Origin: Candidatus Paceibacter sp.
Lineage (GTDB): Bacteria; Patescibacteriota; Minisyncoccia; UBA6257; 02-FULL-45-10c
NCBI GenBank assembly: GCA_020724845.1
Contig: DYGE01000002.1
Coordinates: forward strand, 35,961-99,960
Direction: 5' to 3'
DNA: 64,000 nucleotides
Part shown: piece after piece, positions 5,556-41,614 of the stretch
How the letters are laid out: every line of letters starts with the position of its first letter
Position numbering within the stretch: the first letter of the stretch is position 1
Translations under genes and position numbers: made by a program
Notes under the pieces: model-generated
Told to the model about the DNA's origin: nothing
Database searches by the model: none
Seen by the model: the letters and a program-made list of their open reading frames with translations, nothing else

Positions 5556-5558
5556 GTT

Positions 5559-12906: not shown

Positions 12907-12917
12907 GCAGCTAATAT

Positions 12918-14292
12918 GCCTAAAAAAATATTTCTAAACCTCTATTCAACCATGACCTTCCGAAACTTCGTCGTTTTTCCTGACGGCGTAGTTTCCAAAT
13001 TAGCCGACAATCCGGATATTAAACTGCATGTTTTGATACCTAAGGGCTCTAATTTCCGGGAGCTCTTGAGCCGTTATCCGTTTGGCAAAAAACTGGAAGT
13101 CATAGAAGTCAATACTAAAATGCCAAAGCTTAATCCGGCGCAAAAGCTTTTTTATTTTTTCTATTCCTACTTGATTTTTACCGGCACCACTCGTCTGCTT
13201 GCGACTTTCGGCGCTCGCGCTGACGCTCCTCCGGCCGGCGGCAACCGCTTTTTTGCCCCCCTTAAAAGCGCTATCGCCAATATTTTTGGCAGGTCTAAAT
13301 GGATTAAAACCTCATTCGTTCCTTGGGCGTACAAGAAGCTATTTTCCCGAAAAGAGCTGGCTGATATTTTTGACCGGTATCAGCCGGACTTTGTGTTCTT
13401 ATCCGGCATTGCCGCTTTTGAAGATGTTGAATTGCTTGCCGAGGCACAACGAAGGAAAATCAAGACTATGGGCATGCCAATGAATTGGGATCATTTAAAT
13501 AAATATTACATTCCGCTCCATCCGGACCGCCTATTGATCCAAAATCAGCCAATGAAAAAAGAAGCAGAGGAATACCATGCCTATAAGGAGAGCCAAATTC
13601 AAATGGTCGGCTTTCCCCAGTTTGATTTTTATATTACCGGAAAAGAACATCTTCGCCCGCGCGCTGAATTTATGAAAAAATACGGCTTATCGCCGAATTC
13701 CAAATTAATCCTTTTTATTTCCGGCAGCGTTTACGCTTCCGGCGAACAGGAAATTCTAAAGGAAATGCGCCAATGGGCCAAGGATGGTAAACTGGGGCAA
13801 GAAGTCGGTTTTATGGTTAGGCCCTATCCTAACAGAGCGGATATTGCCAAATACAAAGAATTGGAAAAGTTGCCGGAGATGAAATTTTTCTGGGAAGATA
13901 CCACGACTGATTTAGAGAATATTATAGAATTTATGAATATTCTTTATCATTCGGATATCGTTATATCAATATTTTCTACTACCGCGATTGAAGCGGCAAT
14001 TTTTGATAAGCCGACTATTACCCTTGGCTTTGACGGCCGGGAGAAAAAGCCGGAACACCAGTCGGTTGCCCGGTTGGAGAAGCTCTCCCACTTCAAGCAT
14101 GTTCTTGACACGGGCGGCGTCAGGGTAGCGCGCGGTTTTTCTGATTTATTGGAATTTATAGCAATGTACTTGGAATCTCCTGAAGAAGACAAAGAAAAGC
14201 GGGATTTTCTTTCCGAAAAGATGGCTTATAAAGTCGACGGCAAAGCGTCAGGGCGAGTGGCGGAGGCAATAGTTGCTTATCTTAATGAATAA
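12918..14292 (+). CDS. TagF-like (Glyphos_transf-like) GT-B transferase, paralog 1 of 4
   Basis: The C-terminus SDIVISIFSTTAIEAAIFDKPTITLGFDG is shared with the paralogs at 17665, 26290 and 30021. The ORF-track start at 12769 lies inside the repeat element, so the ATG at 12918 (MPKKIFLN) is preferred. Confidence 0.55.
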
Positions 14293-15658
14293 AAGTCTTT
14301 CTTTTACAGATAAGTTCATTACCGGCGAGGCCTATTTTTGGTTCTGGAATTTAGTTAGCAAGGGCATCGGCTTTGTAAATACTTTTTTTATAATTTCCTC
14401 CCTGAGCATTTACGAGTACGGAGTTTTTCAGCTCCTGCTTGCTACTTATAATATTCTCTCTGATGTCATTTCAACCGGCGGAGGCGCGGTGGGCAATGAT
14501 GTGCTCCGCCTGATAGGCGGGGGAAAGGAAGACAAAGCTAAGCGGCTTTTTTACGAGTATAACCGGTGGCGCGTCGGCCTAAGCATATTATTTTTTGCGG
14601 CTTTCTTTTTCGGCGCCCCGCTGCTGTCTTTTCGCTACGGCCCGGATTTTATCCGGCTGATTCAGATCCTGTCCGTCTTGTTTTTGGTGGAGATATTTCT
14701 GTTGATATCCAAGTCCATATTAAAAATGAGGCTGTATTTTAAGGAGGTGGCCAGTCGGTCGGCTATCGGCAAGCTGGTCCAGTTGGCTGTGCTCGCGTAT
14801 TTTTTCTTTTATGCCGCCTTGGGAACCAGGGAAGTTCTGATTTCCATGATCGCGGCTTCTTTCCTGTCCACCTTGTTTCAACTGCCTTCTCTGCTTCGCG
14901 CCTACCGGCCCTGGCGAGGGCTTGCCACGCCCAGGGAATCCCTGCTCTTTCCACTGCTTAAGTCCCACGGCAAATGGGCGATTTTGCGGCAATTCGCTTC
15001 TGATTTTTCCAACAAAATAAAGCCCTGGTTGATTAAGCTTTTCATTAGCACCGAGGCGGTCGGCGTTTTTAGCGTTGCCACGCAGATGGTGAATGTCTTT
15101 AAGACTTTCTTGCCGACTAATACTTTGGCCACCCTAGTCCCGAGGTCGCTGACCGAGCAGGCGAGAATGAAGAATATATTCGTCTTTGGCACCAAATACT
15201 TGGTTCTACTTGGCATAGTCTTTGTACTGGCCGGCTGGGTTGCCGGACCGGTAGCGGTAGGCCTATTTTTTGAGCAATATGTCGTTTCTTTGCCCTTCTT
15301 TTTTGTCTTAATGCTTTTACTCCCAATTCAGTCTTTCTGGAGGATAGTGGATATTTACCTGGTAGCTTTCCAGGCCCAAAAATTCTTCTTTTTCCGAACC
15401 GGACTTCGGGCCGGGCTCTCATTCTTGTCGCTTCTTATTTTTCTTCCCCTGTTTGGGTTGTGGGGCGTGGTTATTCACGACTTGATGATCCCGCTAGTTA
15501 TGTCGCTAGTGAGCTATTATTATCTCTTTAGGATTAGGCCGATATTTTGGTTCAGCTTCAAATCCATCTTCAGCTTCGGAACGGAGGATAAAATTATGCT
15601 GAAAAATTTGTATAATAACTTTATTCGCTTGTTAAAGATTAAATTGAAACTTGGATGA
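14273..15658 (+). CDS. Polysaccharide biosynthesis protein / oligosaccharide flippase (Wzx-like, MOP superfamily)
   Basis: 461 aa, about 12-14 predicted hydrophobic helices; its position inside a glycan locus supports the call. Confidence 0.55.
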   Translation: MLILMNKSLSFTDKFITGEAYFWFWNLVSKGIGFVNTFFIISSLSIYEYGVFQLLLATYNILSDVISTGGGAVGNDVLRLIGGGKEDKAKRLFYEYNRWRVGLSILFFAAFFFGAPLLSFRYGPDFIRLIQILSVLFLVEIFLLISKSILKMRLYFKEVASRSAIGKLVQLAVLAYFFFYAALGTREVLISMIAASFLSTLFQLPSLLRAYRPWRGLATPRESLLFPLLKSHGKWAILRQFASDFSNKIKPWLIKLFISTEAVGVFSVATQMVNVFKTFLPTNTLATLVPRSLTEQARMKNIFVFGTKYLVLLGIVFVLAGWVAGPVAVGLFFEQYVVSLPFFFVLMLLLPIQSFWRIVDIYLVAFQAQKFFFFRTGLRAGLSFLSLLIFLPLFGLWGVVIHDLMIPLVMSLVSYYYLFRIRPIFWFSFKSIFSFGTEDKIMLKNLYNNFIRLLKIKLKLG

Positions 15659-16692
15659 TTAGAAACATACCTTGCCGCATTTGCGGAGAAAGTAAGAATT
15701 TTTTTAACTTGATTGCTGCCACCGGGAATCGCGGAGTTCCGTTTATTAGCAAAGAGCATAAAGTGGCGCTTTGCCAGAATTGCGGGGTGTGTTTTTTAAA
15801 TCCCCAGCATGAGGATGGCGATTATAAAAAATACTATGAATGGCATGACCGGCCGGTGGACAGGAAAGTGAGTCCCAAGGGTTTTCGTCCGGGAACCAGG
15901 GGAGAGTACGATCGTTTGCGGCTGGATTTCTTTACTAAGATCTTAAAGGACAAGAATGCGAGAATTCTGGATATTGGCAGCGGTTACGGTAGATTCTTGA
16001 AATCTCTGGAGGAGAGGGGTTACCGGAATCTTCACGGCCTGGAGCCGAACCGGGAAGCGGTGAAAGTGGCGGAGGAAAACTACGGATATAAGTTTTACAA
16101 TGCCGGCTTAGGAGACGCTTCCTTGCCGGAGAAGGAATTTGATGCCGCCACTCTAATCGCGGTTATTGAGCATTTCACCGATCCGGTGAAGGCGCTAAGA
16201 GATATGTACAAATTATTGAGGCCGGGTGGCTATCTGTATGTGAATACTCCGAATTTGGAAGATGTGGTTTTGCGCCAGGGAATTAATAAATATTTCAAGT
16301 TCGTCCATACCTTCTACTTTACGGAAAAGAGCCTGAAGAACGCGCTTAAAAAAGCCGGTTTCGAAATAGCCGGAAGCTATACCTTGCCGGCTGACCGGAG
16401 ATTTTCCAACTTGCTCTGTCCGGAAAATTACTCCAATAGCGAGCTGAATATTATTGCTAAGCGCCCATTAAAAGATGGCGCGGCGTTGGAAATTGAAAAG
16501 GAGGATTGGAAGAAGATTCGTGACAAGGTTAGGAGCATTTGGAGAAAGGATAAATATTATGCTTTGACTGGGCGCCTGTTATCCATTTGGCGGCACAGAA
16601 AATTCATCGGTTATCCCGCGATTTTGCTTAAAAAGAAATTATGCTCTAAAAAGCCGCTGACAGATTTTGAAATACCGGAAACAACCGGATAA
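15655..16692 (+). CDS. SAM-dependent methyltransferase with N-terminal Cys4 zinc-ribbon (sugar C-/O-methyltransferase-like)
   Basis: CRICGES..(x)..CQNCGVCFLNP ribbon, then ILDIGSGYGRF motif I. It is paralogous to 31352..32347. Confidence 0.65.
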   Translation: MIRNIPCRICGESKNFFNLIAATGNRGVPFISKEHKVALCQNCGVCFLNPQHEDGDYKKYYEWHDRPVDRKVSPKGFRPGTRGEYDRLRLDFFTKILKDKNARILDIGSGYGRFLKSLEERGYRNLHGLEPNREAVKVAEENYGYKFYNAGLGDASLPEKEFDAATLIAVIEHFTDPVKALRDMYKLLRPGGYLYVNTPNLEDVVLRQGINKYFKFVHTFYFTEKSLKNALKKAGFEIAGSYTLPADRRFSNLLCPENYSNSELNIIAKRPLKDGAALEIEKEDWKKIRDKVRSIWRKDKYYALTGRLLSIWRHRKFIGYPAILLKKKLCSKKPLTDFEIPETTG

Positions 16693-17627
16693 CTATTTTC
16701 CAAGCTGTATTTTGAAATCGGCTCTAAATTTGCCAACCTTGCTTCAAAGTTATCCGGATAACTGAATTTCGCCTTGCCGATTGCTGATTTCGGTTCGTAA
16801 AGGGCGGTAAACATAACGCGCTCTTTAGAGGTGGCGTAACCCCCTTTGTGGATTCCGGTGGTGTCGCAGAAAATTATCGTTCCCGCCTTGCCGGTAGCCA
16901 GCTTTATCTCTTCGTTTGGTATTTTATTCTCTACCGCGCCTTCCGGTGGATAAACCCCGATTCGGCCGAAAGCTTTTTGAGGGAAAAGTTTTCCGTATTT
17001 TCCTTCTCGGTGAGATCCAAGGGCGTAAGTAAATGGGCCCGCTTCTTCGCCGACATCGTTGAGGTACAAAAACATTTTGCAGATTTTGGTGATTCCGGGG
17101 TCTCGGTGCCATCTCTGGGATCCGGCCGCCTCGGTTCCGGGCGGTACCGGTAAAGTAAGATTGGCAGAAAAGAATTTGAATTTTGGATAAGTTTCCAGGT
17201 AGGAAGCGGCAATAGCAAGCGCTTTCGGGTTGATTGCCAATAAAAAAAGAGGATTCCCAAAGTCTGCCGGCTGTTTGTCCTGATTCCAGGCGTATTTGAG
17301 GAACTTTTTCTTTCTACCGGTTTGGGCTGATTTGAGCTTGCTAGCCGTGTATTCTTGGAGCTTCGGCAGAAGATTTTCTTCCGGAAAGAGCTCGTCAATG
17401 TGCGTGAAAGCAACGCCATTCTTTTTGAGGTCATCTGCGATTCGCCGCTGGGCTTCATTTAACTTTGGTTGATTAGCCGTATAAAGCTTGATTCCCTTGC
17501 TATCAATCAGTCGCAGAACTGGCCGGGAAGCGCGGATTGAATAATATAGGTATAATATTACTAAACGCAGGTTTTCCCGAATCGGAAGAATTATGGTCCG
17601 GTATGCTGATTTCAGAATTGATTTCAT
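16611..17627 (-). CDS. Phytanoyl-CoA dioxygenase (PhyH)-like Fe(II)/2-oxoglutarate oxygenase
   Basis: QRWHRDPG (HxD) and ..ALGSHREG.. (second His), with a PhyH-like spacing; 338 aa. Its 3' end overlaps the convergent methyltransferase by 82 bp. Confidence 0.55.
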   Translation of the reverse strand: MKSILKSAYRTIILPIRENLRLVILYLYYSIRASRPVLRLIDSKGIKLYTANQPKLNEAQRRIADDLKKNGVAFTHIDELFPEENLLPKLQEYTASKLKSAQTGRKKKFLKYAWNQDKQPADFGNPLFLLAINPKALAIAASYLETYPKFKFFSANLTLPVPPGTEAAGSQRWHRDPGITKICKMFLYLNDVGEEAGPFTYALGSHREGKYGKLFPQKAFGRIGVYPPEGAVENKIPNEEIKLATGKAGTIIFCDTTGIHKGGYATSKERVMFTALYEPKSAIGKAKFSYPDNFEARLANLEPISKYSLENSYPVVSGISKSVSGFLEHNFFLSKIAG

Positions 17628-17664
17628 AAACGCAATAGTATTATATTACGATAATTAAAATTAT

Positions 17665-19029
17665 ATGCAATCAAAGCCAAAAACTATTTTTATTTCTAGC
17701 TTTCACCCAGCGATTTTTCGTAATATTCTAGCAACTGATGTATTAAAGGTTTTATTAAAAAGGAACGACATAAGAATCGTTATTTTTACTTTGAAACACA
17801 AAAAATCTTATTTCGAATCCCTACTCAATTCTCCTAATATATCTATTGAAGGCATCCCATTCGATCCGCCTTCAAAAAGGTTTTCAACGCTTGTGATGAA
17901 AAGGGTGGCCAGGCTAAGTCTCGATACCTTGACTGCTCGTGTCGAAAAACTTGCAAAGTGGAAAAAGGAAAAAAAATTCTTTTATTATTTTTTCGCATCT
18001 ATTTTAGGCAAAATCATGTCCCGCTCATCGGTGCTCAGAAAATTATTCAGATTTCTCGATTATCGCATTACCAAAACAGACCGTTATGGATTATTTTTTG
18101 AAAAATATAATCCAAGTTTAGTTCTTGTTACTGATATCCAGAATGAAAGAGATGTAGAGCTATTGCAGAGTGGCAAGGACAACAATGTTTCATCCTATGG
18201 AATGGTCCGTAATTGGGATAATCTTACTAGTCATGGAATCATTAGGTTGCTTCCGGATAAGCTGATTGTTCAAAGCGAGGAAGTGAAAAAACAAGCATTA
18301 AAATACAACGACTTACCAGAGAAGGATGTATTTGTAACGGGCATCCCTCATTATGATAAATATTTCCGAGGCCCCAAGATATCTAAGAAAGAATTTTTGA
18401 GAGTATCTAATTTGAATACTAGCAAGAAAACAATTTTTTATAGCGTGATTGGAGACGCCTACTTACCCAACAATAACTTAGATCCCTATATTCTGGATAT
18501 TCTTTCCGGGGTAGACGCTCAAGTATTTGTTCGTTTCTCTCCCACAGTTCCCGTGAAGCAATTAGAAAACATCGATTCATATACGAATATGTTTTTTGAT
18601 CGACCTGGGGTTAGTTTTAATCGAGACGGTTTTTTTATGGATCGAGAATTAAGCGAGGAGGATGACACTAATTTAATGACGGCGCTTTATTACAGCGATC
18701 TAATCGTCTCTGGGCCATCGACCATTTCTTTAGACGCGATTTTCTTTGATAAGCCGGTCATCTTGATAGATTTTTACAAGGAAAGTAGGGGTGAATGGGA
18801 AAAAATATTAAAATATAGGTGTGACCATTTAGATTTTATCATCAAAAATAGAGCCGTGAAGGTTGCAAAAAATGAGAAAGAGTTGATCGAATTTATAAAT
18901 TTATACCTTAATAATCCACAAGAAGATTCTATTGGCAGAATGACAGTTAGGGGTGCGTACTGCGGCCCCAGAGATGGTAAATCGGGTAATCGACTAGCGA
19001 ACCTTCTTTTAAAGGGGTTAGAAAGCTAA
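17665..19029 (+). CDS. TagF-like GT-B transferase, paralog 2 of 4
   Basis: SDLIVSGPSTISLDAIFFDKPVILIDF, and KTIFYSVIGDAY in the position of the TagF YAPT motif. Confidence 0.55.
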   Translation: MQSKPKTIFISSFHPAIFRNILATDVLKVLLKRNDIRIVIFTLKHKKSYFESLLNSPNISIEGIPFDPPSKRFSTLVMKRVARLSLDTLTARVEKLAKWKKEKKFFYYFFASILGKIMSRSSVLRKLFRFLDYRITKTDRYGLFFEKYNPSLVLVTDIQNERDVELLQSGKDNNVSSYGMVRNWDNLTSHGIIRLLPDKLIVQSEEVKKQALKYNDLPEKDVFVTGIPHYDKYFRGPKISKKEFLRVSNLNTSKKTIFYSVIGDAYLPNNNLDPYILDILSGVDAQVFVRFSPTVPVKQLENIDSYTNMFFDRPGVSFNRDGFFMDRELSEEDDTNLMTALYYSDLIVSGPSTISLDAIFFDKPVILIDFYKESRGEWEKILKYRCDHLDFIIKNRAVKVAKNEKELIEFINLYLNNPQEDSIGRMTVRGAYCGPRDGKSGNRLANLLLKGLES

Positions 19030-19739
19030 CTATACAATTTCTTCTTAAGAAGAAGCTCGGCCAATAGAAAGTCGTTTTCGTTGTCTATATCCACAGAGTC
19101 TAGTTTTTCAATTCTATGATACCGGATTCTGTTACCAGTTAATAATTGGTCTTTAATCAGGGTATTGTATTTTACAGCTATCACGTCTGTATGGCTATAG
19201 GCCTGGGGAAAAAGTTGCCGAGGCATATTTGACGGCTCTATAAATCCGGTAATCTCTTTTGGTACGAAGGGAATTAACACATCTTCATTAATCCTCCAAA
19301 GTTTGTAAGGATGTTTTGGCGCGATGGTTATTGTTCTTGCCGAAGTTGCGTCATTATCATTAATTAGCAAGTCTATGCAAGCATCAATTGACGAAGTTGC
19401 GCAAAGGGGAGATGTGGGTGGGAGTCTTAATATTATATCAGCCTTCCAGCCTTCATTTTCTTCTAACCAAATAGTAGCATGCGAAAGATAATCTATATCT
19501 GAGGATTTATCGTTCGCCAGCTCTTTTGGCCTCAAAAACGGGACTTCGATCCCTAGATCCTTACCGATTTCCGCGTATTTTGGGGAGTCTGTAGATAGGA
19601 TAAGTCGATTTATATATTTTGACTTTTTCGCCGCTTCTATTATCCATGCCATCAATGGCTTACCTAAAAGAGGGCGAATATTTTTATCAGGGACCGCCTT
19701 AGAGCCGGCTCTAGCCCCTACGACGCCAAGGATGTTCAT
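19026..19739 (-). CDS. Acylneuraminate cytidylyltransferase family (CMP-nonulosonate / CMP-sugar synthetase)
   Basis: ILGVVGARAGSKAVPDKNIRPLLGKPLMAWIIEAAKKSKYINRLILSTDSP is the CTP_transf_3 (NeuA/KdsB-like) N-terminus. Confidence 0.8.
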   Translation of the reverse strand: MNILGVVGARAGSKAVPDKNIRPLLGKPLMAWIIEAAKKSKYINRLILSTDSPKYAEIGKDLGIEVPFLRPKELANDKSSDIDYLSHATIWLEENEGWKADIILRLPPTSPLCATSSIDACIDLLINDNDATSARTITIAPKHPYKLWRINEDVLIPFVPKEITGFIEPSNMPRQLFPQAYSHTDVIAVKYNTLIKDQLLTGNRIRYHRIEKLDSVDIDNENDFLLAELLLKKKLYS

Positions 19740-19799
19740 ACGTTTTTATATTAAAGGTGTTGATCTGTATTATCAAGCTTGATTGATAGTTGATGAAAA

Positions 19800-20738
19800 T
19801 TGCATTATCATATTGTCAATAAGAGCAATAATCTACTTACTAATAAAAACATGACACACCTGACTAAAGCGCTAAGGAAGTTCTTAAGCACTCAATATTT
19901 GAGGGCTTTGAGTTTGGGCGCGGCGTTACTTGCATTTTGTACTAATCTTTTACCATCCTTCATGCGCGCGCGGATAAAAGAAAAATTAGAAATAATTGGA
20001 AAGTTGGATTACAAGCCTAAAAAGATTTACATGGCCATTGATAACCATTGGCAAATACAGCGACTATATGCTTGCTCAAAAGAACCGGAAACAGTTGCCT
20101 GGATAGAGAAATCTATTCAAGCAAATGACGTCTTTTATGACGTTGGCGCCAATGTCGGAGCTTATTCTTTTGTAGCTTGGGCAGCTGCTGCTGGAAAATT
20201 AAAAGTTTATGCTTTTGAGCCAAGTCCTAGCAGCTTCGCGGCTCTTAGTAAGAATATTGTGTTAAATAATTGTAGCGACGTAATCACGCCCTTTAATTTA
20301 GCGTTGGTTGACGAAACAAAATTACTACACTTAAATTATTCGAATATAGAAGCTGGTGCAGCTTCGCATAGCTTAGATAAGGGGATGGGCATGTCTAAGG
20401 GAGAGGCGCAAAGGCAGGTGATTTTGGGGTATGCATTAGATGATTTTGTGAGGAAATTCGATCTAGCGATGCCAAATTATATGAAAATAGATGTTGATGG
20501 GGCTGAGATGATGGTCTTGGGAGGGGCTCATTGCATATTGGCGCACAAGGGTTTAGAATCAATTCTTATTGAGGTAGATAACTTTGGTTCTAACTTTGAG
20601 AAAGTTGATGGATTTTTGATCGAGCACAATTTCAAAAGACTGTCTAAGTTTACAAGGGGGAGGCATGATGGATCTATATTTAATTGTATCTATCAGAGAG
20701 GGAGCGGAGAAATATCTTGCGCGGTATGTAACCAATAG
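19800..20738 (+). CDS. FkbM family methyltransferase
   Basis: YDVGANVGAYSF and ..MKIDVDGAEMMVLGG.. are Methyltransf_21/FkbM hallmarks. An alternative ATG start lies at 19851. Confidence 0.75.
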   Translation: MHYHIVNKSNNLLTNKNMTHLTKALRKFLSTQYLRALSLGAALLAFCTNLLPSFMRARIKEKLEIIGKLDYKPKKIYMAIDNHWQIQRLYACSKEPETVAWIEKSIQANDVFYDVGANVGAYSFVAWAAAAGKLKVYAFEPSPSSFAALSKNIVLNNCSDVITPFNLALVDETKLLHLNYSNIEAGAASHSLDKGMGMSKGEAQRQVILGYALDDFVRKFDLAMPNYMKIDVDGAEMMVLGGAHCILAHKGLESILIEVDNFGSNFEKVDGFLIEHNFKRLSKFTRGRHDGSIFNCIYQRGSGEISCAVCNQ

Positions 20739-20799
20739 TCGATTATAATAGTTTTATTAAGGCAAGAAGATAATATAAGTTGCCAAAAAATATTGATTT

Positions 20800-22682: not shown

Positions 22683-22695
22683 TTTAATTTAAAAA

Positions 22696-24312: not shown

Positions 24313-24364
24313 AAATTTTCTACCTTTTTGAATTATTTCTCGATTATATTAACGAGTTAATATA

Positions 24365-26263
24365 TTGAATATGGAAAGGCTTAATTACGTACCAATATCG
24401 GAGATAAGAAGAGTCAAAGATGGCGTCAAAGATCCTATTTTTTTGAGTCGTATATTAGCGGACATCTTTCGAATTAATACCCTTTATATGATCACTTTTT
24501 CTGGATCAGGACATATCGGCTCTAGCTTTAGCGCGATGGATATTGTCACTCTGCTCTGGACAAAGATAATGAGAAATCCAAATGAGAATAAGGTTGACAG
24601 CGATACCTATTTTTCTTCAAAGGGTCACGATGTGCCGGGTCTTTATGCTTTATTGATGGGATTGGAGAAATTAGATTTTGAATACATTAATAAATTGCGT
24701 AGATTAGATGGTCTTCCTGGACATCCAGACGTTGAAACGCCTTATATTGTAGCTAATACCGGTTCGCTGGGCATGGGAATTTCTAAAGCGCGAGGAATGG
24801 CGATAGCTAATCGCCTGGATAAAAAGAGTGGTCGTTTTTATGTTTTGACTGGAGACGGGGAACTGCAGGAGGGACAAATCTGGGAATCTTTACAGCCTGC
24901 TGCTAATGGTAATTTTTCCGAAGTGACCGTGATCGTTGATCATAATAAAATACAATCGGACTTAGAGGTCAAGAATACCAGCGATTTAGGTGACCTAGAG
25001 GCTAAATTCAAATCATTTGGTTGGGAGGTAGCTCGCTGTGATGGGCATAATCTTGACGCATTAGTCAAAGTTTTCGATCGCTTTAATAAAATTAAAGATC
25101 GCCCGCAGGTTCTTATTGCTGATACCGTAAAAGGTAAAGGAGTGTCATTTATGGAAAAGATGGGCGGAGACGGGCTTTATAAATTCCATAGTGGCGCGCC
25201 GGATTTTGAAACTTACCAAAAGGCTCTAACAGAGATTCTGGCGAGAGTTAATAAGGGCTTAAATGACAGTAACCAACCGCCCATGACGTTGGTTGAAGTT
25301 GGCCTCCCCGAAAAACATTCATTTGTTAATCAGCAAAAACTTGTATCTGCATACAGCGATGAGTTGTTGAAGCTCTCCGAGGAGAACAAAGAATTGGTAG
25401 TCTTAGATGCGGATCTTATGCTAGATTGCGGGCTCATCCCCATGAAAGAAAAATTTCCTGATCGTTATATAGAATCAGGAATAGCCGAGCAGGATATGGT
25501 CTCTGTAGCGGGGGGGCTAGCCCTAAGAGGAAAGTTGCCAGTTGTTCATTCTTTTGCTTGTTTTCTATCTACTCGTCCGAATGAACAAATCTATAATAAT
25601 GCCACAGAAAAGAAAAAGATAATTTATACAGGGACACTGGCTGGGTTGCTCCCCGCTACTCCTGGCCACTCACATCAGTCAGTTAGGGATATTTCTTGTC
25701 TAGCATCGGTGCCTGGTTTGCATATGATACAGCCTAGCAATGAGGCGGAGACCAGAATGGCTATAAGGTGGGCAGTAAATGAAAATCAAGAGAGCACCTA
25801 CTTAAGGATTGTTTCAATAGCTTGCGATAAGTTGTTTGAATTACCTGAGGGATACGAACTTAGTCCTGGTAAGGGCGCGTTACTAAGAGGAGGGCGAGAT
25901 GCCGTGATTATAGGTTATGGGCCTTTAATGCTTGGTGAAGCTGTTAGGGCTAGCGATCTATTGGCAACTAAGGGAAGGTCTTTGGCGGTCATAAATTTGC
26001 CCTGGTTGAATAAAATAGATGAGGAGTGGTTGATGTCAGCAGTTAGAGAATTCAAAACCATATTCACTCTGGACGACCATTATATTGATTTTGGCCAGGG
26101 GATGTTCATAGGAAATGCTCTGTCTAAAATTAAGAGCGACAAGAAAGTTATTAACTTTGGCGTGAGAGAAATACCGAGATCCGGGCATAACGCGGAAGTT
26201 TTAAAATATCATGGGCTCGATTATGAGAGTCTAGCCGAGGAAATATCTAGTCATTTGGGGTAG
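24365..26263 (+). CDS. Transketolase-like TPP enzyme, N- and C-terminal halves fused (632 aa)
   Basis: TPP-binding SGSGHIGSSFSAMDIV ... SSKGHDVPGLYALLMGL...LPGHPD (transketolase-type, not DXS-type). The C-terminal half resembles the pyrimidine-binding domain. It is distinct from the split transketolase at 61589/62937. Confidence 0.7.
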   Translation: MNMERLNYVPISEIRRVKDGVKDPIFLSRILADIFRINTLYMITFSGSGHIGSSFSAMDIVTLLWTKIMRNPNENKVDSDTYFSSKGHDVPGLYALLMGLEKLDFEYINKLRRLDGLPGHPDVETPYIVANTGSLGMGISKARGMAIANRLDKKSGRFYVLTGDGELQEGQIWESLQPAANGNFSEVTVIVDHNKIQSDLEVKNTSDLGDLEAKFKSFGWEVARCDGHNLDALVKVFDRFNKIKDRPQVLIADTVKGKGVSFMEKMGGDGLYKFHSGAPDFETYQKALTEILARVNKGLNDSNQPPMTLVEVGLPEKHSFVNQQKLVSAYSDELLKLSEENKELVVLDADLMLDCGLIPMKEKFPDRYIESGIAEQDMVSVAGGLALRGKLPVVHSFACFLSTRPNEQIYNNATEKKKIIYTGTLAGLLPATPGHSHQSVRDISCLASVPGLHMIQPSNEAETRMAIRWAVNENQESTYLRIVSIACDKLFELPEGYELSPGKGALLRGGRDAVIIGYGPLMLGEAVRASDLLATKGRSLAVINLPWLNKIDEEWLMSAVREFKTIFTLDDHYIDFGQGMFIGNALSKIKSDKKVINFGVREIPRSGHNAEVLKYHGLDYESLAEEISSHLG

Positions 26264-26289
26264 GCATAAGAATGTCCTTATTTTAAAAA

Positions 26290-27612
26290 ATGAAAACGAT
26301 TTTTATAACCAGTTTTCACCCGATTATTTCCCGGAATATTCTTGCTACTTCTCTGATAGATCGCTTGCTAGAGAAGGGGGCTCGTGTTGTTATTCTGACT
26401 TTCAATAAGAAAAAGGAATTTTTTGAAGAAGAATTTTCGCGAGAGAGAGTAATCGTAGAAGGCGCGGAAAAAAAGCTTGCTTGGCGAGATGCTTTCCTGC
26501 GCTACCTTTCGCTGGCGGCGCTGAATACCAATTCACTTGCCATCAAAAGAAAAACAGAAATGCGTGGCAGCGGTTCGTGGCTGGCTTTACTTATCGGCAA
26601 TCAGAAATGGCCAAGAAAACTGGTAAGAAAATTAAATCTGCTCCTTACGCCGAAAAACGCCTTTGCCGATCTTTTTAATCGTTACCAGCCGGACTTGGTA
26701 TTTTCTACTGATGTTCAAAATGAATTTGATGCAAGAATCATTAGGGAATCTAAGTCCAGGAATGTTTTGGCGGTGGGGATGGTCCGCTCTTGGGATAATC
26801 TTGCCGCGAAGGGATTAATCAGAATTGTTCTGGATAAATTAATTGTCCAAAACGAATTTGCTAAAAAAAGCGCGGTTGACCTCCATGGCATACCGGAAGA
26901 AATTATAGAGATTGTCGGCATACCCCATTACGACTTATATTTGACCGGTCAGCGGATGGAAAGAAAAGAGTTTTTCGCTAAGATTGGGGCCGATCCGAAA
27001 AAGAAGTTGGTGATTTTCGCCCCGACCGGGGATCGGTACATAAAGAATAATTCTGTGGATCGGGATATTCTGGAAATTTTGGACAAAAACCTGCCGCCGG
27101 ATTGTCAGATTCTGGTTAGGTTTCCTCCCACCGATACGGTTAGCGGCCTGGATGTGCGTAAAAATGAAGGCCGTATTATTTTTGATCGCCCCAGTACCAG
27201 GTTTAAGACATTGAAAAACACCGAGCTTTCCAAGGTGGATGATGCGCATCTTGCTGATACGCTTTACTGGAGCGACCTGGTTGTTTCCGGCCCCTCTACA
27301 ATTTGCGTTGACGCCGCGTTTTTTGATAAGCCGGTGATCTTAGCCGGTTTTGACGGTTATGAAAGTCGTTCGTATTTACAAAGTGTTAGGCGATACTTTG
27401 ATTATGACCACTTTCAGCCGATACTAAAGAGTGGCGGAGTGAAATTCGCTGAAAACCCGGAAGAATTATTGAAATTCGCAAATGATTATCTTGATAATCC
27501 CGAACTTGATTCTGCCGGAAGATTGAGAATTGTAAATGAGCAATGCTGGAGGGGGGGCGGCCAAGCTACTGAACGTCTGGCAAATGTGCTATTATCCATT
27601 CTAAATGGATAA
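26290..27612 (+). CDS. TagF-like GT-B transferase, paralog 3 of 4
   Basis: KKLVIFAPTGDRY matches the TagF (I/L)YAPT(W)R motif; SDLVVSGPSTICVDAAFFDKPVILAGFDG. Confidence 0.6.
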   Translation: MKTIFITSFHPIISRNILATSLIDRLLEKGARVVILTFNKKKEFFEEEFSRERVIVEGAEKKLAWRDAFLRYLSLAALNTNSLAIKRKTEMRGSGSWLALLIGNQKWPRKLVRKLNLLLTPKNAFADLFNRYQPDLVFSTDVQNEFDARIIRESKSRNVLAVGMVRSWDNLAAKGLIRIVLDKLIVQNEFAKKSAVDLHGIPEEIIEIVGIPHYDLYLTGQRMERKEFFAKIGADPKKKLVIFAPTGDRYIKNNSVDRDILEILDKNLPPDCQILVRFPPTDTVSGLDVRKNEGRIIFDRPSTRFKTLKNTELSKVDDAHLADTLYWSDLVVSGPSTICVDAAFFDKPVILAGFDGYESRSYLQSVRRYFDYDHFQPILKSGGVKFAENPEELLKFANDYLDNPELDSAGRLRIVNEQCWRGGGQATERLANVLLSILNG

Positions 27613-28318
27613 AAAGCTTTCAGTTATCATTCCAGTTTATAACGAGAAAAACACAATACAGAAAGTCATAGAAGCCGTAAGGGGCAGTGGGGCCGGCGGG
27701 CTAGAAAAGGAGATAATAATTGTTGATGATTTCTCTAATGACGGAACGAGGGATCTTCTTAGGGAAATAGAAAATGAAAGCGATTGCAAGGTCTTTTTTC
27801 AGGATAGGAACCGAGGAAAGGGCGCGGCGGTTCGCCGCGGCTTTTCCGAAGTTTCCGGCGACTTTGTCGTGATTCAGGATGCTGATTTGGAATATGACCC
27901 CGCGGAATATGAAACGCTGTTAAAACCACTTTTGGAGGGGCGGGCGGATGTAGTTTACGGGTCCAGATTCATAGGCGGGAAGAATACTTCGCATCGGGCT
28001 TTATTTTTTTGGCATTATCTTGGCAATAGGTTCCTCACTATTTTATCCAATATTTTTACCAACCTTAATTTGACGGACATGGAAACGGGATATAAAGCGT
28101 TCACCAAAGAGGCGCTTTCTAAGATTACTCCAAAGCTTCAGTCGAACCGGTTCGGCATAGAACCGGAAATCACCGCGCAAGTGGCGAAAAATAATCTGCG
28201 CATTTATGAAGTCGGAATATCTTATTTCGGCAGAACCTATGACGAAGGTAAAAAGATAAACTGGAAAGACGGCCTGGCGGCTATTTGGTTTATTTTTAAA
28301 TATAATTTATTCGGATAA
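27605..28318 (+). CDS. GT2 family glycosyltransferase (polyprenol-phosphate hexosyltransferase-like)
   Basis: SVIIPVYNEKNTIQKVIEAV..IIVDDFSNDGT..VIQDADLEYDP is DPM1/ArnC-like. Length 237 aa. Confidence 0.75.
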   Translation: MDKKLSVIIPVYNEKNTIQKVIEAVRGSGAGGLEKEIIIVDDFSNDGTRDLLREIENESDCKVFFQDRNRGKGAAVRRGFSEVSGDFVVIQDADLEYDPAEYETLLKPLLEGRADVVYGSRFIGGKNTSHRALFFWHYLGNRFLTILSNIFTNLNLTDMETGYKAFTKEALSKITPKLQSNRFGIEPEITAQVAKNNLRIYEVGISYFGRTYDEGKKINWKDGLAAIWFIFKYNLFG

Positions 28319-28328
28319 TAAAGGGTTC

Positions 28329-30014
28329 ATGAGCGGAATTTTCACTAAGGCATCTTTATTGCCGGAGCTTCTCAAAAATATTTTTTTGCTGAATTTTGAG
28401 AATATCTACACTTTTCATAATTTGGAAATATTGCTGGAAGCGTCGTTATTTATTTATGTTTCGTTTCTAGCCGGCAATTTGGCATTGAAGGCAGCGGGGA
28501 TACAGTTTTCTTCTAGCGCTAAAAAAGTCGCCTATTCGGTTATGCTCGGTTATGGGATTTTCGGCACCGCGGGGCTTCTCCTGGCGGTGCTCGGCAAATT
28601 TACCGCGCTTAATATCAGACTGGTTTTTATCGCGGTTGCTATTCTTTCGCTCCGAGAAATTTTAACCCATCTGCGTTCTTTGGTTAATTCCAGCTTTTCA
28701 TTCGTAAAATTCAAGATTTATTTTAACCGCTTTTTTAGGGAAAACTTTTTTCTGAAACTTATTGTGGCGGTTTGGTTGATAATCAATTTTGCGGTAGTTT
28801 TCGTTCCAATTACCGGTCACGATACGTTGGATTATCACCTACCATTGATAAAAAGCATATTGGACAAGGGAAGGATTGATTTTTATTTAAGTTCGTCTGG
28901 CTATTTTCCTACAATTTTGAGTGGCACAGTGCCAAGTAAATTTTTACCGCTCCTCGGTGAAATTATTTACACTGCGCCGTTGCTCATTTTCAACAATTTC
29001 AACGAGCCGTTCATATTCCAGCTGCTCCAATACAGCATGCTGATTTTGCTGATTGCCTTACTATACGATTTCCTGCGGGAAAGATTGGAAAATAAATTTT
29101 TAGCCATCGTTGGGGTGTTGCTGACGTTGTCTATTATGGACCTTCAGAGGGAAATAATGCATGGCGGTTATATTGACGTTCTCGCCTTTTTATTCGGAAT
29201 AGCGAGCTCCTTGCTGGTAATTGATAATTGCTGCAGAGAAGAGATGAGTCAAAAAGAGCTTAGCCTATCCGCTTTGATGCTAGGGCTTGCTTTGGGGGTG
29301 AAATATTTAGCTTTGAATTTCGCGGCTATTAATGTTTTGTTCTTAGCGGGCGCGTTTTTATATAAAAGGATTCCTGCTAATGAGGCTATTGAGGGCCTTA
29401 TAAAATACTCATTCATTGCTTTTCTAGTATCCGGGTTTTGGTATCTTAAAAATCTTGTACTCTTCGGAAATCCGGTCCATCCGATGTTCTCTAGCTCTTT
29501 GTTTACGTCGCAGGTAAATATGTTTCTTATGGACAGGACTTCTTTAAATTTCTTCGCCTTTCCTTTTTACCGTTACGGCCAGTGGTTCGTACAGGAGGTG
29601 GAAACTTCCAGCCGGCTGATTATTTTGGGGTACTTTATATTGGCCTATCTGCTGATTTTGCTTTTTGCCGCCTTCCGCCGGAGATTTAATTGCTCGGAAA
29701 TACTCTTATTCGCCTTTGTCCAGCTCTATCTGTTATTTTTATTCGTTACTTCCCACCAGTACCGATTTCTTTTGCCGGCGGTGATTATGCTGGTGCCGCT
29801 TTTGGCATTACTGGCCGATCGCTTGTACAAATTTTTGCAGGAAAGGCTAAGCGAGCGGTTTTATAAAATTTTCTTGAAGTCATCTATCGCGGGACTGAAT
29901 TTGTTTTTTCTTTTTATGCTTCTGGCAAATATTCATTTTTTTCACGTGAAGTTTTTGTACGCGACCGGAATTTATGATCAGGAGGAATACATTTTGGAAA
30001 TTGGAGGGTTTTAA
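28329..30014 (+). CDS. Polytopic membrane protein, candidate GT-C-type glycosyltransferase using a polyprenol-P-sugar donor
   Basis: 561 aa and strongly hydrophobic throughout (12 or more predicted TM segments). It sits immediately downstream of a polyprenol-P-sugar synthase-like GT2, so the function is inferred from context only. Confidence 0.35.
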   Translation: MSGIFTKASLLPELLKNIFLLNFENIYTFHNLEILLEASLFIYVSFLAGNLALKAAGIQFSSSAKKVAYSVMLGYGIFGTAGLLLAVLGKFTALNIRLVFIAVAILSLREILTHLRSLVNSSFSFVKFKIYFNRFFRENFFLKLIVAVWLIINFAVVFVPITGHDTLDYHLPLIKSILDKGRIDFYLSSSGYFPTILSGTVPSKFLPLLGEIIYTAPLLIFNNFNEPFIFQLLQYSMLILLIALLYDFLRERLENKFLAIVGVLLTLSIMDLQREIMHGGYIDVLAFLFGIASSLLVIDNCCREEMSQKELSLSALMLGLALGVKYLALNFAAINVLFLAGAFLYKRIPANEAIEGLIKYSFIAFLVSGFWYLKNLVLFGNPVHPMFSSSLFTSQVNMFLMDRTSLNFFAFPFYRYGQWFVQEVETSSRLIILGYFILAYLLILLFAAFRRRFNCSEILLFAFVQLYLLFLFVTSHQYRFLLPAVIMLVPLLALLADRLYKFLQERLSERFYKIFLKSSIAGLNLFFLFMLLANIHFFHVKFLYATGIYDQEEYILEIGGF

Positions 30015-30020
30015 TGGTAT

Positions 30021-31349
30021 ATGACCAAAACGATATTTCTTACGATTTTTGAAGGAGCGGAGGCGCGAAATCTTTTGAGGACTTCGGTGGCGCCGACTTT
30101 GCTTGGCGATCCGGAAACGCGAATCGTGCTTTTTACAAAAAGCCCGGAGCGAGTTGAATATTATAAGAAGGAATTTAATGATCCGCGGCTGATTTACGAA
30201 GTGGTGACGCCGAAACCGGTGAGGGGGCTGGACAAAGTTTTTGCGTCTCTGAAGTTTTTTCTTCTAAAAACTGAAACAACAGACCTGCGACGTTCTTCCG
30301 GATTGAGCCGGTTTGCGAGCTGGCTTCTAGCGAGGCCTTGGGTAAGGAAAGCAGTTAGATTCCTGGATTACCATTTGGTCAGAAATAATGCCTATGCTGA
30401 ATATTTCGAAAAATACCAGCCCCAGGCCGTCTTATTGGCACATCTTTTTGATGAGCCGGAAATTCAGCTTCTGCGGGAAGCGAAGCGGCGCGGAGTGAAG
30501 ACGGTGGGATTCGTAAATTCCTGGGACAAAGTTACTGCTCGCTGTATCATGCGGCTTTTGCCGGATAAGGCGATTGTCTTCAACGATATAGTTAAGCGGG
30601 AAATGATGGATTATAACGACATGGATGAAAGAGATATCTTCGTGAGCGGGCTTCCGCAATATGATAGCTATTTTACGGATAACGATTATTCATCGCGCGA
30701 GGAATTTTTTAAAAAACCAGGCCTTGATCCCGCGAAAAAACTTATAGTATACGCCCCGCTGGGACGATCCTTCGGCGCTTCGGATTGGGATATTATTGAT
30801 TTGCTGTATCGCTTGAAGGACGAGAGGAAATTTAGCGCCGACGTTGAGATATTAGTTCGTTTTCAACCAAATGATTTTTTGGACGAATCAGAGCTGAAAA
30901 AGCGGCCGCATCTTGTTTATGATTATCCCGGCATTCGGTTTTCGGCTAAGCGCGGGGTAGATTGGGACATGAATGCCGATCATCTGAAGCATTTGCGCGA
31001 TACCCTTTATCATATGAATCTTTTAGTTTGCTACGCTTCCAGCATGAGTATTGATGCGTCAGTTTTTGACAAGCCGGTTATTAATATCAATTTTGAGCTC
31101 CGCAGGCCTAAATCTTTTGAAAAATCTTCCACTAAATATTATTCTTTCGCCCATTACAAGAAAGCGCTTCGAGCCGGCGGAATCCGGCTGGTGGGTAGCG
31201 AGGCGGAGCTGGTGGAGTGGGTGGGCAAGTATCTGCAGGATTCCTCCATTGACCGCGAAGGACGAAAAAAATTGGTAGCGGAACAGTGCCAGTTTACTGA
31301 CGGCAAATCAGGAGAGCGAATCGGAAAATTTATTCTTAGTTTGATGTAA
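30021..31349 (+). CDS. TagF-like GT-B transferase, paralog 4 of 4
   Basis: KKLIVYAPLGRSF (YAPT-type motif) and NLLVCYASSMSIDASVFDKPVININF. Confidence 0.6.
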   Translation: MTKTIFLTIFEGAEARNLLRTSVAPTLLGDPETRIVLFTKSPERVEYYKKEFNDPRLIYEVVTPKPVRGLDKVFASLKFFLLKTETTDLRRSSGLSRFASWLLARPWVRKAVRFLDYHLVRNNAYAEYFEKYQPQAVLLAHLFDEPEIQLLREAKRRGVKTVGFVNSWDKVTARCIMRLLPDKAIVFNDIVKREMMDYNDMDERDIFVSGLPQYDSYFTDNDYSSREEFFKKPGLDPAKKLIVYAPLGRSFGASDWDIIDLLYRLKDERKFSADVEILVRFQPNDFLDESELKKRPHLVYDYPGIRFSAKRGVDWDMNADHLKHLRDTLYHMNLLVCYASSMSIDASVFDKPVININFELRRPKSFEKSSTKYYSFAHYKKALRAGGIRLVGSEAELVEWVGKYLQDSSIDREGRKKLVAEQCQFTDGKSGERIGKFILSLM

Positions 31350-34589: not shown

Positions 34590-34603
34590 TATTCGTATTA
34601 TCT

Positions 34604-41607: not shown

Positions 41608-41614
41608 TGCCGGT

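Follow-up and report, generated by a model that had tools for sequence, protein, structure and literature searches.

Four TagF-like GT-B paralogs in a Parcubacteria nonulosonate gene cluster are putative CMP-nonulosonate transferases

The window, a stretch of 64,000 nucleotides of contig DYGE01000002.1 from Candidatus Paceibacter sp., carries exactly four full-length TagF-like paralogs, all on the plus strand, within a cluster of predicted nonulosonate biosynthesis and glycan assembly genes. Searching the window by tblastn with each paralog as query revealed no fifth copy. The cluster includes:

12916-14292, plus strand: TagF-fold paralog 1, putative CMP-nonulosonate transferase (458 aa; PF04464, NF046086 sub-threshold)
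14273-15658, plus strand: Wzx-like flippase (PF13440, PF01943)
15655-16692, plus strand: Cys4 zinc-ribbon SAM methyltransferase 1 (N-terminal CxxC...CxxC; Methyltransf_23, E 9e-27)
16611-17627, minus strand: PhyH-like Fe(II)/2-oxoglutarate dioxygenase (PF05721)
17665-19029, plus strand: TagF-fold paralog 2 (454 aa; PF04464)
19026-19739, minus strand: CMP-nonulosonate synthetase-like cytidylyltransferase 1 (PF02348; best NCBIfam model PseF, 115 bits, below cutoff)
19800-20738, plus strand: FkbM-family methyltransferase (PF05050, TIGR01444)
20800-21867, plus strand: NeuB-family nonulosonate synthase 1 (PF03102, E 6e-81, and SAF domain; TIGR03569 323 bits, below equivalog cutoff)
21858-26263, plus strand: SDR, aldehyde dehydrogenase and transketolase-like genes (Pfam and NCBIfam matches), which probably make or modify the precursor of nonulosonate 1
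26290-27612, plus strand: TagF-fold paralog 3 (440 aa; PF04464)
27605-30014, plus strand: GT2 (AglJ/Dpm1-like; PF00535, TIGR04182 sub-threshold) and a 561-aa polytopic membrane protein (LIC_10190 family, sub-threshold)
30021-31349, plus strand: TagF-fold paralog 4 (442 aa; PF04464, AF2 model)
31352-32347, plus strand: Cys4 zinc-ribbon SAM methyltransferase 2 (N-terminal CxxC...CxxC; Methyltransf_23)
32660-36719, plus strand: nonulosonate 2 pathway, with NeuC (hydrolysing UDP-GlcNAc 2-epimerase; passes TIGR03568 with 356.7 bits, cutoff 235.9), CMP-synthetase 2 (33807-34589, plus strand; PF02348, PseF model 189 bits), 2-hydroxyacid dehydrogenase (PF02826) and NeuB2 (35562-36719; PF03102)
37976-40168, plus strand: Wzy_C and TPR membrane protein (PF04932 and TPR), polymerase or ligase/O-oligosaccharyltransferase-like
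40165-42955, minus strand: second Wzx flippase (PF01943) and initiating phosphoglycosyl transferase, Bac_transf (PF02397)

The two cytidylyltransferases, described as NeuA/KdsB-like in a first-pass annotation of this DNA, are indeed PF02348 proteins. Neither they nor the two NeuB proteins reach any equivalog cutoff, so these matches do not identify the activated products. No KdsA or KdsB equivalog was found in the cluster, where both synthases are of the NeuB family. The two zinc-ribbon methyltransferases are homologues (E 1e-18), and the second begins 3 nt past paralog 4. Despite its two CMP-nonulosonate synthetases, the cluster has no member of the known sialyl- or nonulosonate-transferase Pfam families, and only the four paralogs are candidates for this missing role.

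The paralogs share 26-40% pairwise identity in BLASTP (E 1e-37 to 1e-98), with paralogs 2 and 3 at 40%. Their earlier placement within 19 kb stands, and the coordinates agree except for the start of paralog 1, where the previously given 12918 is the last base of the ATG at 12916-12918. A longer reading frame of this gene from 12769, which a public record gives as 507 aa (P0121), is probably incorrect: homologues have about 460 aa, and the start was therefore placed at M50. The C-terminal motif that had been proposed as common to all four was recovered in part: FDKP(V/T)I is present in every paralog, but S(G/I)(P/F)ST in only three, paralog 4 having CYASS instead. As described before, (I/V)(F/Y)AP(T/L) is found in two paralogs only, 3 (VIFAPT) and 4 (IVYAPL). 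The four belong to a large, uncharacterised clade, spread across the Patescibacteria, whose relationship to TagF/TagB is only a distant one and whose members public records label 'CDP-glycerol glycerophosphotransferase'. Paralog 4, with hundreds of homologues at 55-60% identity, belongs to the most conserved Parcubacteria subfamily of TagF-fold proteins.

All four paralogs pass the gathering score (22.1 bits) of the Pfam TagF/TagB profile PF04464, at 34.6-48.1 bits (41, 34.6, 46.8 and 48.1 for paralogs 1 to 4), with a match limited to their C-terminal half (profile positions ~127-367 of 367). Comparison with a canonical TagF-like profile by hhalign gave 98% probability (E 5e-14). NF046086, the BFO_1060 family, is the best curated-model match of paralogs 1, 2 and 4, while paralog 3 scores higher with PF04464; this model is matched in parts only, at a sub-threshold 36-77 bits (cutoff 200). 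Paralog 1 reaches 76.6 bits with it and 28.6 bits with TIGR04396. In none of the four was PF05159, PF02350 or a sialyltransferase-family Pfam matched at E ≤ 0.01. The profile comparison suggested by the first-pass annotation favours its Glyphos_transf side, in the C-terminal half, and lends no support to membership in KpsC/KpsS or GT38.

The AF2 model of paralog 4 (pLDDT 93) has a two-Rossmann GT-B fold. The top Foldseek matches are UDP-GlcNAc 2-epimerases (E 4.5e-14, TM 0.57), with TagF below them (E 2.8e-10, TM 0.50) and neither a sialyltransferase nor a Kdo transferase among the top 50. No transmembrane helices are predicted in the paralog proteins, and the modelled one has a strongly basic, helical insertion at 63-135. 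Natural fusions join TagF-fold proteins to a Zn-ribbon-type methyltransferase, to a GT4 or to a deacetylase, and fused tandem duplicates occur as well.

The catalytic His of TagF, on which the first-pass annotation had made its assignment depend, is absent. By hhalign and alignment, the position of TagF H584 (the second catalytic His, equivalent to TarL H433) is occupied by Y, S, P and Q in paralogs 1 to 4; in 219 of 226 Parcubacteria homologues this HP-His position is Q/P or Y. There is no N-domain His common to the four paralogs and no TagF 'WHG' (H444) motif, and an invariant W-D occupies the topologically equivalent site. The PTxR Arg that is invariant in TagF-like enzymes is not conserved. 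Among 334 homologues the W-D, R..P and C-terminal His are 92-100% conserved, corresponding in paralog 4 to the invariant W168-D169, R280, P283 and H378.

Conservation extends to the gene neighbourhood. We compared 43 Parcubacteria genome loci that surround a paralog-4 orthologue, each 18 kb or longer. NeuB is encoded in 34, a PF02348 CMP-transferase in 35 and NeuC in 31 of them, NeuB and the CMP-transferase occurring together in 33. At least one of NeuB, NeuC and CMP-synthetase lies within 10 kb in 38 loci; the other five have no nonulosonate gene within that distance. The recurrent order is TagFl3-TagFl4-ZnMT-NeuC-NeuB-CMPt-2HacidDH-WzyTPR, a paralog-3-type gene often being immediately upstream of the paralog-4 type. 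The NeuC/CMP-synthetase/2-hydroxyacid dehydrogenase/NeuB set recurs as a module, and the nonulosonate module is closed by a Wzy_C-TPR gene in 12/43 loci. The NeuB/SDR/TK/CMP-transferase sub-module of the window reappears in L029 and L042, the GT2 and 561-aa-type membrane protein pair in the P0049 contig and L021, the methyltransferase 2 type in 15/43 loci and the PhyH-like dioxygenase in 7/43. Of 93 TagF-like genes in related loci, 14 have a Zn-ribbon methyltransferase gene immediately behind them; together with the natural TagF-fold and methyltransferase fusion P0353, this supports the pairing noted earlier with the two methyltransferases of the window (15655, 31352). Loci with more NeuB genes do not have correspondingly more TagF-like genes (Spearman 0.07), and gene association taken alone is a fallible guide.

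Tannerella forsythia Tanf_01245 and TFUB4_00887 are genetically supported transferases of Pse/Leg derivatives with a TagB-type GT-B domain; they have ~365 aa and retain the HP and D/E-D/E-G motifs (PMC5420450). Like this BFO_1060 family, the paralogs are remote GT-B relatives of TagB/TagF whose genes accompany those for CMP-nonulosonate biosynthesis, and the reaction proposed for the family, in which a CMP donor passes its nonulosonate to a lipid-linked glycan, would be theirs as well (PMC5420450). They differ in their length (440-458 aa), the basic helical insertion and the Y/S/P/Q replacing the HP His. With TagF/TagB/TarL (PF04464; PDB 3L7I, 8VA1) they have in common the GT-B fold, a homologous C-terminal nucleotide-binding half, the motifs GxP..D, APT (two paralogs) and (D/S)xxS(S/T)...(D/K)KP, a predicted CMP leaving group and a likely monotopic membrane association (PMC10901376). 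In contrast to TagF, they lack H444, H584 and a conserved PTxR Arg, and nonulosonate biosynthesis genes replace TagD/TarI as neighbours.

A proteobacterial sister family of 'hypothetical proteins' (for example Rhizobium sp. WL3 WP_147885260, Polaromonas sp. YR568, Herbaspirillum) has the length and architecture of the paralogs, with 23.5% identity to paralog 1 over 66% of the length (E 3e-15). The only relative in the plasmid database is from Rhizobium (L090), and a Rickettsiales MAG also carries a member. This family shows no variation in the W-D, in the R that precedes the HP position by two residues or in the C-terminal His, and it retains the HP His (107/108), whereas the Parcubacteria families have Q/P or Y. 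All four loci of this family examined have it directly beside NeuB/NeuC/CMP-transferase genes, and a PF05159 protein co-occurs in L090, L092 and L093. KpsS/KpsC (PF05159) and related CMP-dependent GT-B enzymes, including GT-B sialyltransferases, use CMP-ulosonic acid donors, commonly with an Asp as base or nucleophile. From these the four paralogs are set apart by lacking both their Pfam matches (E ≤ 0.01) and the HP motif, whose His is regarded as important for bacterial sialyltransferases; their chemistry may therefore differ.

The paralogs are probably GT-B enzymes of the cytoplasm, peripheral to the membrane, with CMP-activated nonulosonic acids as donors and a lipid-linked glycan as acceptor. 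Since both TagF His are absent and genes for sialic-acid-like sugars are almost always nearby, addition of such sugars to a surface glycan is their most likely function. The alternative raised in the first-pass annotation, CMP-ulosonic-acid transfer, fits the conserved neighbourhood and the nearest curated family, BFO_1060 (PMC5420450), though not as KpsC/KpsS or GT38 members. The donors would be CMP-nonulosonic acids from the two NeuB/CMP-synthetase sets, and each paralog would add a residue to a different acceptor hydroxyl, releasing CMP. That acceptor would probably be an oligosaccharide carried on undecaprenyl phosphate, initiated by Bac_transf and extended by GT4 and GT2 enzymes. The product may be decorated by the Zn-ribbon and FkbM methyltransferases, flipped by Wzx and polymerised, or ligated to a surface acceptor, by the Wzy_C-TPR protein. 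In the active site, the Asp of W-D would take over from TagF H444 as base or nucleophile, the invariant Arg, the Gln/Tyr and the conserved C-terminal His would substitute for the HP His in contacting the CMP phosphate, and the basic helical insertion may provide membrane contact. Counting against CMP-nonulosonate transfer are the loss of the HP His, the NF046086 scores, the rank of 2-epimerases above TagF in Foldseek, the absence of correlation with NeuB number, the five loci devoid of nonulosonate genes and a tagD/tarI check limited to ~84 kb.

It is unlikely that the paralogs are same-pathway CMP- or nucleotide-dependent GT-B enzymes whose donor is, instead of a nonulosonate, either a Kdo-like octulosonate or a different acid or alcohol, activated with CMP or CDP and connected with the 2-hydroxyacid dehydrogenase, or that they are SpsB-like accessory transferases. 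Such a role would suit the 2-hydroxyacid (PGDH-like) dehydrogenase in the conserved module (19/43 loci), the sub-equivalog scores of the cytidylyltransferases and NeuB proteins, and active-site residues that suggest chemistry unlike that known. However, KdsA/KdsB equivalogs are missing, both synthases are NeuB-like, NeuC passes its equivalog cutoff, and the cluster has no other candidate consumer of CMP-nonulosonates.

The Patescibacteria envelope is thought to be monoderm and Gram-positive-like, and teichoic acids would suit it. Genuine TagF/TagB-type polyol-phosphate transferases, adding glycerol- or ribitol-phosphate from CDP-alcohols supplied from elsewhere in the genome and so building a polymer like teichoic acid or decorating the nonulosonate glycan through phosphodiester links, would also account for the PF04464 and hhalign matches and the APT-type motif of two paralogs. 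SpsB sets a precedent, as a TagB-domain protein inside a nonulosonate cluster need not be a nonulosonate transferase (PMC7439481). Yet tblastn with plasmid-borne TagD, TarI and LicC proteins detected no homologue in the window, in line with the TagD/TarI absence reported earlier, nor is one among the called genes of ~20 kb of extra flank (~84 kb of contig in total). A TagD-like gene is present in 3 of the 81 loci compared and TarI in none; as a control, six of seven canonical plasmid TagF-like genes adjoin a TagD, TarI or LicC-type cytidylyltransferase, the seventh adjoining TagA and an ABC transporter. With CDP-polyol genes absent from the window and 78/81 loci, H584 replaced in all four paralogs, neither a WHG nor another conserved N-domain His, the PTxR Arg unconserved and nonulosonate genes as neighbours, polyol-phosphate transfer appears quite improbable, and the original proposal of CDP-glycerol/ribitol phosphotransferases making a teichoic-acid-like polymer is not supported.

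Epimerase- or hydrolase-like GT-B proteins, or non-catalytic scaffolds organising the pathway at the membrane, are very unlikely: the Foldseek ranking, the loss of both canonical His and the PF02350 matches or '2-epimerase' source names of some homologues point that way, but sequence profiles favour PF04464 over PF02350, the cluster already has a bona fide NeuC, the strict invariance of W-D, R..P and His in hundreds of sequences from two phyla argues for catalysis, and the GT4, methyltransferase and deacetylase fusions suit a glycan-assembly enzyme.

If the CMP-nonulosonate transferase reading is true, these four Parcubacteria enzymes, which resemble teichoic-acid polymerases, are mislabelled.

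The window carries exactly four homologous TagF-fold genes on the + strand, with pairwise identities of 26–40% (BLASTP, E 1e-37 to 1e-98), and tblastn with each paralog as query found no fifth copy in the window. Two Cys4-ribbon methyltransferases accompany them, as the first-pass annotation had described; both have an N-terminal CxxC...CxxC and they are homologous to each other.

12916-14292, + strand: paralog 1, TagF-fold protein
15655-16692: Cys4 zinc-ribbon methyltransferase 1
17665-19029, + strand: paralog 2, TagF-fold protein
26290-27612, + strand: paralog 3, TagF-fold protein
30021-31349, + strand: paralog 4, TagF-fold protein
31352-32347: Cys4 zinc-ribbon methyltransferase 2

The ATG of paralog 1 lies at 12916-12918. 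The public call for this gene (protein record P0121, 507 aa) comes from an ORF that opens 49 codons upstream, at 12769, and is probably wrong, its homologues being only about 460 aa long; this length backs the start at 12916 and makes 12769-12915 the extra upstream part of P0121. The motifs first quoted for the paralogs are indeed present: FDKP(V/T)I in all four, SxxST in three, and (I/V)(F/Y)AP(T/L) in paralogs 3 and 4. A sequence search of the PDB with methyltransferase 2 gave no match.

The resemblance to TagF is concentrated in one half of the protein. All four paralogs exceed the gathering score of PF04464 (34.6–48.1 bits vs 22.1), with coverage confined to profile positions of about 127–367 of 367, the C-terminal two-thirds. 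Profile-profile comparison with eight canonical TagF-like proteins (hhalign) aligned 231 columns of the C-terminal subdomain at 98% probability (E 5e-14), and in a PDB sequence search with paralog profiles TarL was the sole match, a weak one (E 5e-4 to 1e-3). The N-terminal subdomain alone reached a probability of 8% or less against canonical TagF-like profiles. The AlphaFold (AF2) model of paralog 4 (pLDDT 93, pTM 0.90) has the GT-B fold of the TagF-like family, with two Rossmann subdomains and a helical insertion at about residues 70–132. Foldseek searches of the PDB with this model placed UDP-GlcNAc 2-epimerases and MshA on top and TagF at rank 41 (E 3e-10); such matches are generic to GT-B proteins and do not discriminate between families. 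The paralogs have no transmembrane segment. Their helical insertion, taken as residues 63–135, is strongly basic (10–18 Lys and Arg vs 2–6 Asp and Glu). It is similar in this to the helices with which TarL and TagF, as monotopic proteins, bind the membrane (PMC10901376), and by this analogy we infer that it may serve as a monotopic membrane-binding element.

The two catalytic histidines of TagF were placed on the sequence by comparing wild-type and variant PDB entries. H444 is the His in QTWHGTPLK (3L7I vs 3L7J) and H584 the His in LLRMHYL (3L7I vs 3L7M, H584A); their counterparts in TarL are H300 and H433, respectively (PMC10901376). Both are invariant in eight canonical TagF-like sequences. 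hhalign pairs H584 with Q282 of paralog 4, and the invariant Arg two residues before it and the next Pro are retained. The register was fixed by an alignment including a Rhizobium relative, which reads R-C-H-P at this site (hereafter the HP position), where paralogs 1 to 4 read R-P-Y-P, R-F-S-P, R-F-P-P and R-F-Q-P. The replacement is systematic: the position is Q or P in 111 of 119 paralog-4-type homologues and Y in 103 of 107 paralog-1-type homologues, whereas proteobacterial relatives keep His in 107 of 108.

No His column common to all four paralogs was found in the N-terminal subdomain. When full-length profiles were forced across this domain, column confidence was near zero and H444 fell at a different position in each alignment mode. 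A W-D dipeptide follows directly after the fifth strand, about 41 residues ahead of the GxPxxD motif, in all 334 homologues. TagF and TarL have W-H where the paralogs carry W-D, and W-D is likely to be the counterpart of W-H, an equivalence drawn from strand order and spacing only, as profiles do not align reliably over the N-domain. Conservation reaches 92–99% at a C-terminal His (H378 of paralog 4). The first-pass annotation had offered a TagF-type phosphotransferase as one reading and had tied it to the conserved catalytic His; by that standard the reading fails.

The genes found among the paralogs are those of nonulosonate synthesis: two NeuB synthases, one NeuC, scoring above its equivalog cutoff, and two cytidylyltransferases of PF02348, both with PseF as best match. 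The cluster makes two CMP-activated nonulosonic acids. It also includes an FkbM methyltransferase, a PhyH dioxygenase, an SDR, an aldehyde dehydrogenase, a transketolase-like enzyme, a 2-hydroxyacid dehydrogenase, a GT2 with a 561-aa membrane protein, two Wzx flippases, a Wzy_C-TPR protein and a Bac_transf initiating transferase. Six GT4 genes, one GT2, a GDP-mannose dehydratase and a DegT aminotransferase lie upstream.

Several parts of this region stand out in their own right. A second ulosonate module at 19026-26263 consists of CMP-transferase 1, the FkbM methyltransferase, NeuB1, the SDR, the aldehyde dehydrogenase and a 632-aa transketolase/DXS-like enzyme, and is without an aminotransferase or dehydratase; it may be a route to an unusual, perhaps dicarboxylic, ulosonic acid. 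Its core of NeuB, SDR, transketolase and CMP-transferase is also found in two related loci (L029 and L042), the aldehyde dehydrogenase in L042 only. The PGDH-like D-2-hydroxyacid dehydrogenase at 34604-35575 accompanies NeuC, NeuB and CMP-synthetase as a fixed module member in 19 of 43 Parcubacteria loci. The GT2 (AglJ/Dpm1-like matches) and the 561-aa polytopic membrane protein (LIC_10190 family, weak) lie at 27605-30014, between paralogs 3 and 4, a pair that recurs in the contig of protein record P0049 and in locus L021 and may be a polyprenyl-phosphate-sugar synthase and a GT-C-like extracytoplasmic transferase.

The 730-aa Wzy_C domain protein at 37976-40168 has TPR repeats at its C-terminus, and in 12 of 43 loci its gene is the last of the nonulosonate module. 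It could act as a polymerase or else as a PglL-like protein O-oligosaccharyltransferase; an outer membrane is expected to be absent in the source organism. Just before it, a UDP-glucose dehydrogenase-like ORF of 313 aa (37026-37967) has neither the beginning of its N-terminal domain nor any of its C-terminal domain, its homologue in locus L001 being 568 aa; it is possibly truncated or a pseudogene. Genes at 45025-51088 are unrelated to the glycan cluster: a 194-aa PaaX_M/Cas2-like protein, a 175-aa ORF that matches no family, and a 1570-aa protein carrying three lamin-tail domains. Immediately ahead of the window, positions 306-6427 of locus L094 encode a 1179-aa protein (weak PG_binding_1 match), a TPR protein and a protein mannosyltransferase-like member of the PMT family (GT-C). 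Three further GT4 genes come next; the surface-glycan region therefore continues past the window edge.

Among curated families, the closest is NF046086, the BFO_1060 family, which is the best NCBIfam match for three of the four paralogs and the sole NCBIfam match for paralog 3, whose PF04464 score is higher. The matches are partial, at 76.6, 36.4, 36.3 and 54.3 bits for paralogs 1 to 4 vs a cutoff of 200. BFO_1060 of Tannerella forsythia is a transferase for a legionaminic acid derivative, and Tanf_01245 is its counterpart for Pse; both have a TagB-type domain and are backed by knock-out glycan analysis (PMC5420450). There is thus genetic precedent for nonulosonate transfer by a TagB-like GT-B protein. 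The HP motif, a feature of the BFO_1060 family common to bacterial sialyltransferases (PMC5420450), is replaced in the paralogs by Y, S, P or Q before the P; the coupling to CMP-nonulosonate genes seen for that family is present here. The 'surface carbohydrate biosynthesis protein' family TIGR04396 matched paralog 1 only (28.6 bits vs a cutoff of 125). No paralog matched KpsC/KpsS (PF05159) or sialyltransferase families GT38/42/52/80 at E ≤ 0.01, and membership in KpsC/KpsS or GT38 is rejected on that ground. The paralogs might instead be transferases with another donor, or with a SpsB-like role, a reading that we consider unlikely. SpsB (PMC7439481) is a caution here, since it shows that a protein with a TagB domain can be encoded among nonulosonate genes and need not be the transferase for that sugar.

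The association extends across genomes. The source organism belongs to the Parcubacteria (Patescibacteria), near Candidatus Harrisonbacteria. A scan of one genome per species returned 145 relatives, of which 79 loci were kept; one is labelled Bdellovibrionales, several only 'bacterium', and no other name falls outside Patescibacteria. Of the loci, 43 span 18 kb or more; among these, NeuB is found in 34, a PF02348 CMP-transferase in 35 and NeuC in 31; NeuB and CMP-transferase occur together in 33, and at least one of the three in 38. A repeated gene order is paralog-3-type, paralog-4-type, zinc-ribbon methyltransferase, NeuC, NeuB, CMP-transferase, 2-hydroxyacid dehydrogenase and Wzy_C/TPR, and the same neighbourhood was found on two additional contigs. 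These 43 loci hold 93 TagF-like genes, one to four per locus; paralog number does not track NeuB number (Spearman 0.07).

Coupling to CDP-glycerol, CDP-ribitol or CDP-choline synthesis was absent from the window and about 20 kb of flank; the first-pass annotation had asked for a search for tagD, tarI and tarJ. Annotated TagD, TarI and LicC proteins served as queries: TagD-like genes turned up at 3 of 81 related loci, TarI at none of the 81, and neither in the window. The gene calls for the additional 20 kb or so of flank include no TagD, TarI/TarJ or LicC. As a control, seven canonical TagF-like genes were sampled from plasmids. Six are beside a cytidylyltransferase (TagD in three, one of them annotated as adenylyl/cytidylyltransferase, TarI in two and a LicC-type enzyme in one), and the seventh adjoins TagA and an ABC transporter. 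True polyol-phosphate transferases whose donors are encoded elsewhere would agree with the PF04464 matches; with neither catalytic His nor these neighbours present, we regard them as quite improbable.

The link to nonulosonate genes is also seen in Proteobacteria. The plasmid collection yields a single relative, a 'hypothetical protein' of Rhizobium encoded directly after NeuB, KpsF, NeuC and an acylneuraminate cytidylyltransferase. Near it are four more divergent GT-B proteins, one of which matches PF05159 (KpsS/KpsC) and two of which have weak BFO_1060 and TIGR04396 matches. Homologues from Polaromonas, Herbaspirillum and a Rickettsiales MAG again have NeuB, NeuC-like and CMP-transferase genes on their flanks, which gives four of four loci when Rhizobium is counted. 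Since such clusters surround relatives in both lineages, the tie between the wider family and nonulosonate clusters spans two phyla. Compared with both the Tannerella precedent and this proteobacterial sister family, which keeps the HP His, the Parcubacteria families have systematically lost it.

A profile of the four paralogs retrieved 1,688 cluster representatives (50% identity) at E ≤ 1e-30 and 4,478 at E ≤ 1e-10. The clade is very large, almost restricted to Patescibacteria and probably mis-annotated, teichoic-acid-enzyme annotations standing on thousands of Patescibacteria proteins. Tandem double-domain (about 900 aa) or fused forms, some of which may be gene-calling artefacts, are seen in the representatives P0350, P0352, P0353, P0396 and P0432. 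The fusion partners are a GT4 domain, a polysaccharide deacetylase and a methyltransferase homologous to methyltransferase 2 of the window; this last fusion supports a functional pairing of transferase and methyltransferase.

We consider it reasonably probable that the paralogs transfer nonulosonates from CMP donors to a lipid-linked glycan on the inner side of the membrane. Two donors are made and no member of a recognised sialyl- or nonulosonate-transferase family is in the cluster; the four TagF-fold paralogs are the only candidate users. CMP leaves in TagF chemistry and in nonulosonate transfer alike, so a retained nucleotide-binding half with a remodelled catalytic half fits such a switch. 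The generic Foldseek matches would also allow GT-B proteins that are not transferases, which we think very improbable. In the reading that we favour, nonulosonate would pass from the CMP donor to the glycan as proposed for the BFO_1060 family, the product would be methylated and flipped by Wzx, and polymerisation or ligation would follow via the Wzy_C-TPR protein.

A broader proposal is more speculative, and we put it forward tentatively. Parcubacteria proteins called 'CDP-glycerol glycerophosphotransferase' might constitute a new family of glycosyltransferases (some 1,700 clusters at 50% identity) with a rebuilt TagF/sialyltransferase active site, in which an Asp would be the base and Arg with Gln/Tyr would replace the two His. 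One to four paralogs per genome, sometimes tandem-fused, might then build an anionic polymer that is methylated and rich in nonulosonic acids (teichulosonic-acid-like), or a protein glycan capped with nonulosonate, a product that would be near-universal on these ultra-small host-dependent bacteria instead of teichoic acids. We found no literature linking Patescibacteria/CPR with nonulosonic or neuraminic acids, and no biosynthetic precedent in that on teichulosonic acid.

The nonulosonate transferases known from bacteria are very few (PMC5420450, PMC7439481), and the clade, together with its sister family in Proteobacteria, would contribute many candidates that can be tested. The lineage-specific replacement of the HP His would be a natural experiment on the role of that residue in CMP-dependent GT-B enzymes. 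If the many Patescibacteria proteins annotated as teichoic-acid enzymes prove to be nonulosonate transferases, the envelope chemistry inferred for a major radiation of uncultivated bacteria would shift from polyol-phosphate to sialic-acid-like glycans, a shift that would bear on how epibionts attach to, or evade, their hosts.
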